A program made the position numbers and the translations under genes. Positions 5,989 through 11,448 of a stretch of 64,000 bases of DNA are shown here, one piece after another; position 1 is the stretch's first letter, and the number at the start of each line of letters is the position of its first letter. Source of the DNA: a virus. The DNA lies in the IMG/VR virus record IMGVR_UViG_3300031555_003603, positions 1 through 64,000 of that record; one strand, 5' to 3'. The notes under the pieces were generated by a model. The model was not told the DNA's origin. It did no database searches and saw nothing but the letters and a program-made list of their open reading frames with translations.

Positions 5989-7416
5989 ATGTCTTATTGT
6001 GGATATGTTACCACACTAAAAAATGTGCGTCCTCATCCTAATGCCGACCGTATGAAGTTAGCTGATTGCTTCGGTAATACTGTCTGCGTAGGACTTGATG
6101 CTGCCGAAGGTGAAATCGGTGTATATTTCCCTGTAGATGGCCAGTTATCCGTAGAATTCTGCCAAGTTCATGACCTTGTGCGTCGTAAAGATGAAAATGG
6201 TAATCCTGCTGGCGGTTATCTTGACCCAGAAAAGCGTAATATCAAGGCCGTAAAACTTCGTGGAGAAAAATCTGATGGTTTGTTTATGCCCTTCTCTTGC
6301 CTTGCTTACACCGGAGTGAATCTCGACGACATTGATGTTGGTGATACTATCACCACTGTAAACGGCCATGAGATTTGCCAAAAATATATTCCCAAATCCA
6401 ACGCTAAGAATCATCAAGGAAATGGTAATAGAACTCGTAAGCGCAAAGACCCTATTGCTCCTCTGTTCCAAGAGCATGCAGATACTGAGCAGCTTGCTTA
6501 TAATCTATCCGCATTTAAACCTGGTGATGAAATTGAAATCACTTTGAAGATGCACGGTACTTCTCAGCGTACTGCTAACTTGCCCGTACTGTCTGGATAC
6601 AAGAGAACTTTCTGGGATAAGCTAACTCGTAAACCTGGTACTCCCATTTACAATTGGGGTGGGGTATCCGGCACTCGTCGTGTAGTACTTGACACCTATG
6701 ATGGCGGTTTCTATGGCTCTAATGAGTTCCGTGAGCAGCACTCTAAGGCCTTTGAGGGTAAGTTGTGGAAGGGTGAAACTGTTTACTACGAAGTAGTTGG
6801 ATTTACTCATACTGGCACTCCTATCATGGCATCTGCGTCCAATAGCAAGGTAAGTGATAAAGAGTTTACTAAGAAATATGGTAAGGAAACTGTATTCTCT
6901 TATGGATGCTCTGCGAATGCCACTGTATTTATGGATGGTGAAGCTTTTAATACGAGCAATTGTGTAAATGCACCTAAACAGTCTGACATTTATGTATATC
7001 GTATGACTATGACCAATGAAGATGGTGAAGTTGTAGAATATACCCCCGACTTCATGCGTTATCGTTGTGAATTGATGGGCGTCAAAACTGTTCCCGTTTT
7101 CTATCGCGGCTTTATTGAAGCTGTTGAGGGCGAAGATGGAGAGGTTGAATATCGTTTAGTAGGTAAAAATGCTGCCGATATGTATGGCCATGATAGTGCC
7201 GGAAGTTTGGTTCAGACTATGGCCGAATGCTTCTACGATGGTCCTGACCCCATTGGTAAGACCCATGTGCGCGAAGGCGTTGTTGTAAGAATTGTAAACC
7301 GTCCTAAATTTACTGCATATAAACATAAAAACTTTTACTTCAAGGTGCTTGAAGGCATCGCTAAAGATACGGCTGATGCACCTGATATGGAAGAAGCACA
7401 AGAGGTAAGCGAATAA
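5989..7416 (+). CDS. tRNA-binding-domain RNA ligase (Rnl2-family nucleotidyltransferase)
   Basis: N-terminal Myf/EMAP-type tRNA_bind signature (HPNADRMKLADCFGNTVCVGLD); ligase motif I KMHGT, motif IV EGVVVR, motif V KHK; second ATG (5989) has correct RBS spacing (GGAAUGAUAAAAAUG cassette). Confidence 0.55.
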   Translation: MSYCGYVTTLKNVRPHPNADRMKLADCFGNTVCVGLDAAEGEIGVYFPVDGQLSVEFCQVHDLVRRKDENGNPAGGYLDPEKRNIKAVKLRGEKSDGLFMPFSCLAYTGVNLDDIDVGDTITTVNGHEICQKYIPKSNAKNHQGNGNRTRKRKDPIAPLFQEHADTEQLAYNLSAFKPGDEIEITLKMHGTSQRTANLPVLSGYKRTFWDKLTRKPGTPIYNWGGVSGTRRVVLDTYDGGFYGSNEFREQHSKAFEGKLWKGETVYYEVVGFTHTGTPIMASASNSKVSDKEFTKKYGKETVFSYGCSANATVFMDGEAFNTSNCVNAPKQSDIYVYRMTMTNEDGEVVEYTPDFMRYRCELMGVKTVPVFYRGFIEAVEGEDGEVEYRLVGKNAADMYGHDSAGSLVQTMAECFYDGPDPIGKTHVREGVVVRIVNRPKFTAYKHKNFYFKVLEGIAKDTADAPDMEEAQEVSE

Positions 7417-7440
7417 GAGGGCTTCGGCCCTCTTTGGTTA
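7416..7440 (+). terminator. putative terminator hairpin
   Basis: agagggc-ttcg-gccctct + ttggtt (weak U-tract). Confidence 0.4.
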
Positions 7441-7458
7441 TAAAGGAGTGAATATAAA

Positions 7459-7911
7459 TTGACATTAGAATATATTTTATCTGAAAAAACAAAAGCAATG
7501 AAATCTGGCGACAAAACTCGTGTAAAAGTATTAAATGATATTATTGGCTTAGTCCAGAAGGAACAAACAAAAGGAAAAACAAAAATTGAAGCTACTGAAG
7601 ATATGGTTGCGGCTTGCGCCACAAAAGCGCAAAAGACTCTTGAAGAAATGGTTGCTACTTGTCCAAATACTGCCGAATATACCGAACGGTTGGCAGACTA
7701 TACTGCTCAGCTAGCTATTGCTACTGAGTATGCACCAAAACTAATTACAGACCCTGAAGAAATTGCGCATATGGTAGTAGATGCTGTAAATGGCACGATT
7801 GAAATGACTATTCGCAACAAGGGTCAAATTATGCGTGTAGTTATGCCAGCGCTCAAGGGTAAAACTGATATGGCTATCGTCAATAAAGTTATTGGAGAGA
7901 TGCTAAAATGA
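7459..7911 (+). CDS. GatB/YqeY domain protein
   Basis: TTG start; TLEYILSEKTKAMKSGDKTRV..LNDIIGLVQKE matches YqeY family signature. Confidence 0.5.
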   Translation: MTLEYILSEKTKAMKSGDKTRVKVLNDIIGLVQKEQTKGKTKIEATEDMVAACATKAQKTLEEMVATCPNTAEYTERLADYTAQLAIATEYAPKLITDPEEIAHMVVDAVNGTIEMTIRNKGQIMRVVMPALKGKTDMAIVNKVIGEMLK

Positions 7912-8171
7912 GCAAAGAATATATAGAAATTGAACGAGAAAAATTTATTGAAATTTTTAGAAACCATTTATATTTTATTTCTATTCAAGATAGCGATAAA
8001 TATAAAAATGATAAAAATTTCAAAAGAACAATTGGAGAAATTTGCTGCGACGCCTTAGATAAATGGGTAGAGTGTCATCCTGAAGCTTCTAAAAATATTT
8101 ATACTGGACGCCATTGGGCTGAATACATTATAGAGCAAATACCTTTATGTACTGGAGATATGCTAAAATGA
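7908..8171 (+). CDS. hypothetical protein
   Basis: ATGA-overlapped with neighbours. Confidence 0.5.
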   Translation: MSKEYIEIEREKFIEIFRNHLYFISIQDSDKYKNDKNFKRTIGEICCDALDKWVECHPEASKNIYTGRHWAEYIIEQIPLCTGDMLK

Positions 8172-9328: not shown

Positions 9329-10027
9329 ATGAGTGTTTATGCGGTTACCGACCTTCACGGGTGTTGGACGTAATGGAACTCTATAAGAAATTTTCTCAAA
9401 GAAGACGATAAACTATTTGTTTTAGGCGACTGTATTGACCGTGGAGACAGTGGTTTAGCAATTCTCCAAGAGGCACTAGATGACCCAAGATGTGTGGTTT
9501 TGTGCGGAAACCATGAAGATATGATGGCAGATGCGCTTGATGAAGAAGTTCGTTATGGGTATTCTGACTATTGGATTTGGCGCTGGTTTCAGAATGGCGG
9601 TCGTACTACTTATGACCAATGGCAAGAGGCTGGCATGGATTTTAGTTGGATTGGTAAAATCAAAGGATTACCACTTTTTGCTGAATATACAAATACCCAA
9701 GGCGACCATATTCTTATGACACACAGCGGTAGAGTTCCAAGAAAAGGATATGAGAATTCGCCACAGTCCCGTAGATTATTATTATGGGATAGAGACCATC
9801 TGAGAGAAAGAAAGTGGCATCGTGAAGAAAATGAATTTATTGTTCATGGGCATACTCCAATTCTAATCATGCCTCAACTTGAAAGTAAAAATAGTAAAAT
9901 CGAACCAGGAGCATTTCACTATTGTGATGGACATAAAATCAATATTGATAATGCTGTTTATCATACTGGTAATATTTGTTTATTAGATTTAGATACTTTT
10001 GATGAACATATTTTTGGAGTTGATTAA
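9329..10027 (+). pseudogene. lambda-phosphatase/Pnkp-type binuclear metallophosphatase with local -1/+1 frame disturbance (in-frame TAA at 9371)
   Basis: Motifs DLHGC, GDCIDRG, GNHE, HG in frame; between HGC and EDDKLF the -1 frame reads LDVMELYKKFSQRR (phosphatase-like helix) whereas the gene frame reads WT*WNSIRNFL. Confidence 0.5.
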
Positions 10028-10029
10028 TT

Positions 10030-10290
10030 ATGGCTAAATATGAAACGCATGATTTTTATTGTTTGCGCTGTGGACGTGCTGGTGTTCCAGTAATGCGTAA
10101 ACTTGGTAAACAGCATGGAGAATTTCACAGAAAAAAATTATGGTGTCCTTACTGTAAGATGGAACTCAATCATATGGAAATTAGAAACCAACAGGAAAAA
10201 GAGATTTTTATGGAGGGATTCAATAATGGAGAATACAAAGAAGAAGCAAACGAAAGTGTTTGTCATGTGCGGGCCTGCTGGTTCGGGTAA
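10030..10290 (+). CDS. zinc-ribbon protein
   Basis: CLRCG...CPYCK; overlaps kinase gene start. Confidence 0.4.
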   Translation: MAKYETHDFYCLRCGRAGVPVMRKLGKQHGEFHRKKLWCPYCKMELNHMEIRNQQEKEIFMEGFNNGEYKEEANESVCHVRACWFG

Positions 10291-10738
10291 ATCCACTTGG
10301 CTTATCAAACAGATGAAGCCCAAAACCGATATTTGTATTTCTCGTGATAATATCCGATTTGGTTTATTGAAAGAGGGAGAAGATTATTTCGCTCATGAAA
10401 ATGATGTCAAAGAAATCTTTTATAATTCAATTGCCAACAATACCTCTGCCTCTTATTGGGAAAATATTTATATTGATGCCACTCATTTGAATCCAAAAGC
10501 AAGAAGAGCTACAATGTGGAACATTAGTAAGTATTGCTCTGTGGTGGCAGTTAGTTTCGAAGTGCCAGCTAAAGTGGCAATTGAACGCAATAAAAAGCGT
10601 TCTGGATTGGCTCGAGTTCCCGATAATGTAATCTGGAATATGAAAAGCCGCTATAAAATTCCTTCTCTAGATGAAGGATTTGATGAAATTTGGCATATTG
10701 ACGCTGAAGGTGTAATTAGAAAGGAGGTAAAAGAATGA
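10226..10738 (+). CDS. polynucleotide 5'-kinase (P-loop kinase)
   Basis: Walker A VFVMCGPAGSGKST immediately after start; GGAGGG RBS 8 nt upstream of ATG 10226. Confidence 0.55.
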   Translation: MENTKKKQTKVFVMCGPAGSGKSTWLIKQMKPKTDICISRDNIRFGLLKEGEDYFAHENDVKEIFYNSIANNTSASYWENIYIDATHLNPKARRATMWNISKYCSVVAVSFEVPAKVAIERNKKRSGLARVPDNVIWNMKSRYKIPSLDEGFDEIWHIDAEGVIRKEVKE

Positions 10739-11448
10739 GTAAAATTTTTGTAAGTTCTGATTATCATTTCAATCATGATAGAGAATTTATTTGGAAAGCC
10801 CGTGGATTCAATTCTGTTGATGAAATGAATGAAGCTATTATTACTAACCATAACTCGGTAGTTGGACCGGAAGATGATGTTTATATTCTTGGCGATATTT
10901 GCCTGGGTGGCGGAGTGCCCGGTATTACCGCCAAAAATCAAGCTCTTATTGAACGACTAAATGGTCGTATTCATATCATTCTTGGTAATCATGATACTCC
11001 TACCCGTCAAGAAATGTATGCCCTGTGCAAAAATGTATATAGTATCAAATATGCTGATATGTTTTGTTATCATGGTTATCATTTTTATCTATCTCATTTT
11101 CCTACTATCACTTCCAATTTGGAAAAAGAAACACTAAAGCAATGTACTATTTGTTTGTTCGGACATACCCATCAAAATAATAACTTCTTTATGGATATGC
11201 CTTTTATGTATCACGTCGGAGTAGATTCTCACAATTGCATTCCCGTCCTTTTAGATGATGCCATTGAAGATATGAAAACAAAGGTAAAAGAGTGCTTAAA
11301 TACTATTTAGCCTTTTATTGTATCCTTTCCACAAAAGCATTTGGGATGCGAAAAATGCGTATATGAATATAAATGTTATGACGCTCAATTTAATAGGCGT
11401 TGTAATAATTATAAAAAAGACCCACCTGATGGAGGATATTATGGATAA
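10735..11448 (+). CDS. calcineurin-like metallophosphoesterase with Cys-rich C-terminal extension read through TAG at 11308
   Basis: DYHFNH, GD, GNHD motifs; with TAG=Gln the frame continues 46 codons to TAA 11446-11448, abutting the RBS of the next gene; no terminator/promoter in 11311-11448. Confidence 0.45.

Follow-up and report, generated by a model that had tools for sequence, protein, structure and literature searches.

Phage modules that heal and seal broken RNA are a recognised counter to host ribonuclease defences, and sets in which an ATP-dependent RNA ligase accompanies a polynucleotide kinase and a HAD, occasionally a calcineurin-like or HD, phosphoesterase have been described by comparative genomics (PMC7824862). 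In the lytic phage T4, Pnkp and Rnl1 act against PrrC by combining a 5'-kinase, a 2',3'-phosphoesterase and an ATP-dependent ligase. In the bacterial Pnkp-Hen1 system, represented by Clostridium thermocellum Pnkp (CthPnkp), kinase, phosphatase and ligase are joined in one polypeptide and 3'-healing is carried out by a binuclear metallophosphoesterase (PMC3675462). Here, we describe a gene set of this kind at positions 5989–11448 of a 64,000-nucleotide stretch of viral DNA (IMG/VR record IMGVR_UViG_3300031555_003603; hereafter the window), in which an RNA ligase, a lambda-like phosphatase, a polynucleotide kinase and a small metallophosphoesterase are all encoded on the + strand. The source is a large, gut-type phage that reads TAG as an amino acid. 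On balance, the region is probably an RNA end-healing and end-sealing toolkit spread over two transcription units, and we hold this reading with modest confidence. As such it is another case of the already described phage module of ligase, kinase and phosphoesterase, and the basic reading is not new; what distinguishes the locus is a ligase predicted to be of the Rnl5 type, healing enzymes that are split into separate proteins, a lambda-like phosphatase gene interrupted by a nonsense codon and an esterase tail gated by TAG.

Compared with T4, the logic of the set is the same, and T4 Pnk and the window kinase fall into one clade. Unlike in T4, the ligase is predicted to be Rnl5-type rather than Rnl1, the esterase is a binuclear metalloenzyme rather than a DxDxT (HAD) enzyme, kinase and esterase are separate polypeptides, and a cognate nuclease (PrrC) is known for T4 only. 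The kinase domain of CthPnkp is the closest solved structure to the window kinase, and the use of a binuclear metallophosphoesterase for 3'-healing would be the same chemical solution; unlike CthPnkp, three separate genes are found here instead of one kinase–phosphatase–ligase polypeptide, with the bacterial Pnkp model TIGR04075 matching the kinase only, the ligase appears to be Rnl5-type rather than Rnl4, neither window esterase is close to the Cth phosphatase, an enzyme embellished by a Cth-loop and a beta-hairpin, and no Hen1 methyltransferase was seen. A related arrangement is that of Bacillus phages Kirov, PBC2 and Thrax and their metagenomic relatives, which have the same ligase family (45% identity), a Pnkp-clade kinase adjacent or near, and a YqeY gene nearby. 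In the Bacillus-phage pairs the 3'-healing HD domain is fused to the kinase (compare Runella HD-Pnk), whereas here a lone kinase is followed by a separate esterase.

An RNA ligase of the Rnl5 type

The ligase gene (5989..7416, + strand; alternative ATG at 5980) encodes 475 amino acids and is intact under the standard genetic code. An N-terminal OB module (approximately residues 1–135) is followed by a C-terminal nucleotidyltransferase (NTase) domain with extra inserts, in which motif I contains K187 (KMHGT), motif III E268, motif IV E429-G430 (EGVVV) and motif V K445/K447 (KHK). Across 47 diverse homologues, 35–77% identical to the window ligase, no variation is seen at K187, H189, G190, E268, E429, G430, K445 or K447. 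An initial annotation, made from the sequence alone, had listed the motifs KMHGT, EGVVV and KHK; all three are present, and the nucleotidyltransferase lysine is in place as K187. The consensus motif I of the family, ITEKLHGTS, equals the DraRnl motif TEKLHG (PMC1807946). The window ligase has the same motif I (T-x-K-x-H-G) and motif IV (EGVVV) as DraRnl and retains the motif V lysine.

A phmmer search of the PDB with the single ligase sequence gave no matches, and the assignment draws instead on a family profile and a predicted structure. The match of the family profile to NgrRnl (5COT) has an E-value of 1.8e-7 and extends from the OB domain as far as the motif I lysine, aligning K187 with NgrRnl K170; the match of the same profile to PheRS-beta was weak (E 0.03) and that to T4 Rnl2 was not significant (E 0.63). 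The AF2 model of the ligase has a pLDDT of 90, and in a Foldseek comparison with the PDB its best 13 matches are all NgrRnl at full length, with E-values from 4e-17 to 2e-15 and target-normalised TM-scores of 0.65–0.68. T4 Rnl2 comes next at 6e-6, over the NTase core only (TMq 0.27–0.30), so that the next fold lies 11 orders of magnitude behind Rnl5. Because the full-length structural match to NgrRnl, the profile match and the conserved motifs agree, we assign the window ligase, on sequence and model, to the Rnl5 type with extra inserts. Like NgrRnl (PDB 5COT) and DraRnl, it places the OB module before a C-terminal nucleotidyltransferase domain and has no C-terminal appendage; the NTase-domain inserts make it about 135 residues longer, and its identity to NgrRnl is about 15%. 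Enzymes of the Rnl5 type seal 3'-OH/5'-PO4 nicks that have an RNA 3'-OH strand, and they prefer Mn2+. The initial annotation had called it Rnl2-type, and this label had to be given up, given an E-value of about 1e-17 for full-length NgrRnl versus 6e-6 for the T4 Rnl2 NTase domain. T4 Rnl2 has an N-terminal NTase followed by an all-helical C-terminal domain, whereas the NTase domain is C-terminal here, and with the T4 match confined to the NTase core we rejected the Rnl2 class.

In a Pfam scan the N-terminus was recognised as PF21189 (the PHA02142 OB fold), and PF09414 scored 26.7 bits against a gathering threshold of 27. The DraRnl model of NCBIfam, TIGR02306, matched residues 11–193 only (1.7e-13), with 50.2 bits against a cut-off of 151. 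These sub-threshold scores indicate that the ligase belongs to a divergent sister clade of the Rnl5 enzymes rather than being their close orthologue. In PHROGs, the protein matches phrog_968, "RNA ligase", over its full length (1.7e-66), and the family is large, with more than 8000 close matches falling into 2315 clusters at 50% identity. To our knowledge, this phage-specific phrog_968/PHA02142-like clade is biochemically uncharacterised. Some homologues (P0124, P0129 and P0140; approximately 590–810 aa) carry an intein, consisting of Hint with or without LAGLIDADG, right after motif I, which is a sign of a constrained ligase active site. An HNH endonuclease gene directly upstream of the ligase in the relatives L081, L087 and L089 is absent from the window.

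The initial annotation had also described the N-terminus as a fused tRNA-binding (tRNA_bind) domain. A resemblance between OB folds is real, with faint Foldseek matches to PheRS-beta (5.6e-4), the C-domain of Plasmodium vivax p43 (EMAP II-like, 0.057) and MetRS-C (0.06); the tRNA_bind family itself, PF01588, could not be confirmed, as a Pfam search of residues 1–135 at E <= 0.01 returned PF21189 instead. The N module of DraRnl has been called a putative homologue of the PheRS OB fold (PMC1807946), and the tRNA_bind resemblance probably reflects this ancestry, already recognised for the OB module of Rnl5 enzymes. In solved Rnl5 structures this module touches ATP rather than tRNA; in NgrRnl, D53 and K121 contact the ATP gamma-phosphate, and the module promotes lysine adenylylation (PMC7261155). 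The counterparts of these two residues, D50 and K132, are conserved in the window ligase.

A Pnkp-type kinase and a small metallophosphoesterase

The kinase gene (10226..10738, + strand) encodes 170 amino acids, is intact under the standard code and specifies a stand-alone polynucleotide 5'-kinase of the Pnkp clade. The protein has a P-loop GPAGSGKST (K22/S23), the catalytic D41, R44 and a lid segment ERNKKRSGLAR, which align to the CthPnk segments GSSGSGKST, SSDFCR and ERNKNRTDR, with D41/R44 corresponding to Cth D38/R41 and the lid arginines also in register. Its best PDB matches are the CthPnkp kinase (4jst, 1.4e-8), then T4 Pnk (6e-5), and also Pnkp1; among families it matches AAA_33 (2e-17), phrog_505 "polynucleotide kinase" (4e-19), the kinase part of TIGR04075 (1.5e-11) and TIGR01663. 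No NMP-kinase family is among these matches. Judged by its sequence, the protein is a Pnkp-type polynucleotide 5'-kinase and not a dNMP kinase, which bears out the earlier call of a P-loop 5'-kinase. A tblastn search of cultured phages with the kinase gave no matches at 1e-8.

The next gene (10735..11448, + strand) encodes a small metallophosphoesterase (MPE2, of the aq_1665/MJ0936 class), and its start overlaps the kinase stop in the tetranucleotide ATGA. Under the standard code the gene would end at 11310 and yield 191 amino acids, and the end at 11448 requires readthrough of the TAG at 11308–11310, a point to which we return with the genetic code of the phage. All metallophosphoesterase motifs are present, the protein matches phrog_547 at 7e-42, and its nearest neighbours in both sequence and fold are Aquifex aq_1665 (1XM7, the best) and MJ0936. 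As 1xm7 and MJ0936 match best, we rejected a CthPnkp-like assignment for this enzyme.

A lambda-like phosphatase gene interrupted by TAA

Upstream of the kinase, positions 9329..10027 (+ strand) specify a binuclear metallophosphoesterase of the lambda phosphatase (NinI/PrpA) type. The frame reads MSVYAVTDLHGCWT, then a stop codon and WNSIRNFL..., with the in-frame TAA at 9371–9373 (codon 15), so that there is no open reading frame. Otherwise the metal and phosphate motifs are intact (DLHG, GDCIDRG, GNHE and HGHT), including the invariant residues D8, H10, D34, D37, R38, N61, H62, H132, H173 and H175. The product matches phrog_246 (2e-34) and aligns over its full length, with all metal and phosphate motifs, to lambda phosphatase (NinI, 1G5B) at 9e-11 with the single sequence and 3e-17 with a profile; the profile match to the Cth phosphatase (4j6o) is 0.0044 and covers 45 residues only. 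PrpA and PrpB, too, match far better than the CthPnkp RNA-repair phosphatase does. The description of this gene as lambda-phosphatase/CthPnkp-like therefore keeps its first half and loses its second, and with it goes the proposal of a module built on a Clostridium Pnkp-type phosphatase, the gene being in addition interrupted by TAA. That the locus encodes two calcineurin-type phosphoesterases is correct insofar as both proteins are binuclear metallophosphoesterases, one of them broken in this genome. Lambda phosphatase itself hydrolyses 2',3'-cyclic nucleotides in vitro, and RNA is not believed to be its substrate in the cell (PMC3675462).

In the close relatives L081, L087 and L090, codon 15 is CAA (Gln) and the gene, of 229–232 aa, is intact; the L087 gene is 91% identical to the window copy at the DNA level. 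The window TAA thus arose either by a C-to-T nonsense mutation in the very recent past or through an error of assembly; either the phosphatase is probably inactive in this genome or the sequence is in error at this codon. Two ways of rescuing the gene were considered and rejected. Recoding of TAA does not fit, since TAA terminates most L081 genes, only TAG occurs in frame and the relatives have CAA. Reinitiation would have to use the next in-frame start, GTG at 9494, which lies past the DxH and GDxxDR motifs, and the product would be without these two metal-binding motifs. A NADAR-domain gene is located just upstream of the phosphatase in L087 (8075–8521) and L090 (3913–4362); at this position the window has only a 90-nt gap (9238–9329).

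Linkage of ligase and kinase across phages

Among 80 IMG/VR relatives of the window ligase, we looked for a kinase up to 10 kb away. A Pnkp-type kinase is found in 46 of them, and separately fetched close relatives (L081, L082, L087, L089 and L090) keep the same gene order as the window. At 23 of the IMG/VR loci the kinase protein is about 300 aa long (290–401 aa as called) and lies 1–4 kb from the ligase, and the members inspected are kinase–HD fusions. At every one of the 25 loci with a stand-alone kinase the small esterase gene comes next, often with overlapping stop and start codons, and most of these loci also have a lambda-like phosphatase upstream. A small zinc-ribbon gene is kept between phosphatase and kinase in 20 of the 80 relatives. 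Among cultured phages, the ligase of Bacillus phage Kirov (45% identity) adjoins a kinase–HD protein, and mycobacteriophage Lolly9 has the ligase together with a kinase–HAD Pnkp. Ligase and kinase thus cluster in unrelated phage lineages, from the IMG/VR set and the close relatives to cultured phages of Bacillus and Mycobacterium, and this is not due to chance. The combination of one ligase family and one kinase family with a 3'-phosphoesterase module that is swapped between lineages is the strongest evidence for a shared healing-and-sealing pathway, and the swapping favours the small esterase over the lambda-like enzyme as the partner of the kinase. Such a swap beside an unchanged kinase and ligase would be expected if the esterase supplies the 3'-healing step. 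A megablast search with positions 5900–11800 against 50,697 phage records gave no match, indicating that the phage has no close cultured relative.

The proposed repair pathway and its alternatives

In the pathway that we favour, the stand-alone Pnkp-type kinase (10226–10738) would phosphorylate the 5'-OH, and the small esterase (10735–11448), translationally coupled to it, would open or remove the 2',3'-cyclic phosphate or 3'-phosphate; the lambda-like phosphatase (9329–10027), where intact, may add to the clearing of 3' ends. The Rnl5-type ligase would then be adenylylated on K187 with the help of its OB module and seal the 3'-OH/5'-PO4 break in a duplex-like context, e.g. in a tRNA nicked in the anticodon loop whose halves stay together. 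In this genome the pathway, if it works, would do so with kinase, small esterase and ligase, the lambda-like phosphatase being probably non-functional. What the sequences show is the family and fold of the proteins, the conservation of their catalytic residues, the linkage of the genes in several lineages and the state of the stop codons. From these we infer healing of RNA 3' ends by the small esterase, tRNA as the substrate in preference to other RNA, a role against ribonuclease defences of the host and a link to an anticodon nuclease.

Several observations weigh against this reading. Ligase and kinase are in separate transcription units with membrane-protein genes between them, the lambda-like phosphatase carries a nonsense codon, and the 64,000-nt window contains no tRNA genes, suppressor tRNA included. 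No kinase is found within 10 kb of the ligase in 34 of the 80 IMG/VR relatives, and since much of the linkage elsewhere is inherited synteny, the loci do not count as independent. The resemblance of the small esterase is to generic phosphodiesterases (1xm7, MJ0936, LpxH, Mre11) and not to the CthPnkp phosphatase, and the characterised Rnl5 enzymes seal duplex nicks, with a physiological role that has been called uncharted (PMC5397189). Herelleviridae such as EF24C have the small-esterase family and a second Metallophos-family phosphoesterase close together, and a 14.5-kb stretch inspected in EF24C contains no annotated or detected kinase or ligase, which makes RNA repair a less convincing role for the small-esterase family at large.

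The EF24C arrangement, together with the division of the locus into two transcription units, fits an explanation in which the neighbours do not form one pathway and only the ligase, possibly with the kinase, handles RNA ends. The lambda-like enzyme would then be a protein Ser/Thr/Tyr phosphatase for host takeover, consistent with its being far nearer to lambda phosphatase and PrpA/PrpB than to the CthPnkp phosphatase and dispensable enough to acquire a nonsense codon here, and the small esterase would act as a phosphodiesterase on nucleotides or cyclic oligonucleotides, for example to destroy defence signals. We consider this unlikely, though it is the most serious competitor, because the order of stand-alone kinase and small esterase holds at all 25 loci, often with overlapping stop and start, and alternates with kinase–HD fusions in sister lineages that have the same ligase. 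It is distinctly unlikely that the genes serve nick repair in replication or DNA repair instead, with kinase and esterase cleaning 5'-OH and 3'-phosphate DNA ends as PNKP-type enzymes do and the ligase sealing nicks with a ribonucleotide 3'-OH strand end, e.g. in RNA-primed or ribonucleotide-containing DNA. Rnl5 enzymes do seal nicks under the direction of a template, joining RNA-OH to pDNA or pRNA, and DraRnl protects Deinococcus from ionising radiation (PMC1807946, PMC5397189). Genes for a pyrimidine-dimer glycosylase, topoisomerase II, an NAD-dependent DNA ligase, DnaB, thymidylate synthase, DHFR and an anaerobic ribonucleotide reductase lie in the neighbourhood. However, that NAD-dependent ligase (23123–25123) gives the phage a dedicated enzyme for DNA, the kinases of relatives are fused to HD or HAD modules of kinds used in RNA 2',3'-end healing, and the ligase family is annotated throughout, and by profile, as RNA ligase.

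Still more improbable, in our estimate, is RNA repair directed at RNAs other than tRNA, such as mRNA or rRNA cut by toxin–antitoxin RNases, HEPN/Cas13-type effectors or ancillary nucleases of type III CRISPR systems, or a step in the processing of phage RNA. No sequence feature of the locus specifies tRNA, and the contact of the Rnl5 OB module with ATP, not tRNA, in solved structures (PMC7261155) likewise favours this reading. Against it, the one phage healing-and-sealing pathway known to be established by experiment, that of T4 Pnkp and Rnl1 against PrrC (summarised in PMC2610378), targets tRNA, a nick-sealing ligase needs ends that are held together, as they are in a nicked tRNA, and a YqeY/GatB-C-like protein, from a domain family tied to tRNA binding, adjoins the ligase.

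Transcription units and neighbouring genes

A terminator-like hairpin (5890–5925) with a sigma-70-like promoter right behind it (TTGATT, 17 nt, TATAAT) occupies 5890..5954 on the + strand upstream of the ligase, and a second terminator-plus-promoter cassette (9240..9294, + strand) separates the ligase unit from that of phosphatase, kinase and esterase. The two cassettes are near-identical, each with a strong hairpin, then TTTTTTGATTTTTA and a TATAAT box, and the core TTTTTTGATTTTTA occurs at 435–448, 3001–3014, 5922–5935 and 9262–9275, four matches versus 0.76 expected by chance. The repeated cassettes are probably terminator–promoter units of one temporal gene class. The first unit comprises the ligase, YqeY, small open reading frames (ORFs), a membrane HExxH protein and a further membrane protein; the second comprises the phosphatase, a zinc-ribbon protein, the kinase and the esterase. 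Host-type promoters and the near-absence of TAG in the repair genes suggest early expression, which would suit a counter-defence role.

Directly after the ligase, 7459..7911 (+ strand) encodes a stand-alone YqeY/GatB-C-like protein (PF09424, 2.7e-15; phrog_1460). YqeY adjoins the ligase in L081, L087, L089 and L090 and lies 8 kb from it in Bacillus phage Kirov, and the protein is a possible tRNA-binding accessory. The occurrence of a predicted GatB-like tRNA-binding module in a phage that may read TAG as Gln is suggestive. The zinc-ribbon gene (10030..10290, + strand; phrog_1257, 2.8e-9) encodes a small CxxC...CxxC protein and extends 65 nt into the kinase gene in another reading frame; the overlap is similar in relatives such as L015, L026 and L064. 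The predicted membrane proteins of the ligase unit (8383–8814 and 8819–9238) have no family match, and the former, with an HExxH motif (LLNHEFGHAIQ), may be a membrane metallopeptidase. Further away, the window contains unusual phage cargo, a protein with the major-vault-protein (MVP) shoulder domain (PF11978; 1920–2966) and, at 12250–13773, an SPFH/Band-7 protein of 507 aa whose long coiled region is rich in Ala, Glu and Lys; the relative L087 encodes an 820-aa MVP-like protein.

TAG recoding and the esterase tail

TAG is recoded as a sense codon in this phage, in a manner like that of genetic code 15. Translation with TAG as sense joins fragments into long ORFs not seen otherwise, with up to 19 in-frame TAG codons per gene, as in 63870..60583 (- strand, 1095 aa, 19 TAG), 58801..56603 (- strand, 732 aa, 11 TAG) and 15904..17646 (+ strand, 580 aa, 7 TAG); 26012..27097 and 41885..45769 (both + strand) are likewise long only with readthrough. 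Gene calls of L081 run through TAG, none of its genes terminate in TAG and TAA terminates most of them, so that TAA is the normal terminator in the clade of the window phage. This usage matches that of published code-15 phages (bioRxiv 10.1101/2021.08.26.457843; PMC9523058). The residue most often aligned to TAG is Gln, at variable sites; the PIN–PhoH gene, for instance, has TAG where L081 has Gln, and the reverse also occurs. Insertion of Gln at TAG is suggested by these alignments. In this PIN–PhoH gene (14679–15929) the TAG at 15363–15365 falls right at the junction of the PIN domain with the PhoH P-loop (NN-TAG-ITMLKGPAGTGK), a site at which L081 has Gln, its own TAG being at a different Gln position. 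Replication genes, nucleotide-metabolism genes and most repair genes are free of TAG, and the ligase, YqeY, phosphatase and kinase genes contain none in frame.

The small esterase departs from this pattern. Its gene consists of the esterase domain (10735–11307), the TAG (11308–11310) and a Cys-rich tail (11311–11445) ending in ...NYKKDPPDGGYYG. The 46-codon tail is kept in database proteins and in six loci or lineages at 55–92% identity (window 11308–11448; L087 10001–10714; L089 6001–6708; L090 6001–6705; L060 around 14550; L015 around 7143). The junction codon is always TAG, whereas gene versions without the tail end in TAA or TGA. The tail has the Cys pattern ...C-x2-C...C...C-x-YKKDPPDGGYYG, and synonymous changes occur within its invariant motif YK[KR]DPPDGG[YF]YG. 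Tail conservation, synonymous changes and the constant TAG together indicate that the tail is translated, and since the phage recodes TAG, 10735–11448 is the correct gene model, as the initial annotation had it, by way of readthrough of TAG 11308. A Pfam scan of the tail found no domain, and its AF2 model has low confidence (pLDDT ~40).

The arrangement raises the prospect, which we rate as quite improbable, that the small esterase exists in two forms controlled by the code switch and that the repair set, by keeping tRNAs intact, couples repair to the alternative code. Translation before the suppressor tRNA is available would stop at TAG 11308 and give the 191-aa enzyme, and later readthrough would add the Cys-rich tail, which could retarget or regulate the esterase. 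More broadly, the set of ligase, kinase and esterase, together with YqeY, might guard tRNAs, perhaps the suppressor tRNA, from a host tRNase. The recoding-dependent isoform, speculative as it is, would be the most unusual element of the locus.

Implications

Recoding shifts gene boundaries in this phage, such that one repair gene is complete only through readthrough of TAG while a genuine TAA disrupts another. In the small esterase gene, both the TAG and the tail behind it are conserved, which makes it a modest but concrete candidate for isoforms that depend on the code switch, with a functional role that is speculative. Late gene expression would depend on the suppressor tRNA, and if tRNAs are indeed guarded as proposed, the upkeep of the alternative code would be tied to tRNA repair. 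For the family as a whole, the association of a very large phage clade of Rnl5-like ligases, with thousands of members from metagenomes, with polynucleotide kinases and 3'-healing modules of three kinds that can replace one another (HAD, HD and metallophosphoesterase) gives a testable hint that such ligases take part in end-healing and sealing.

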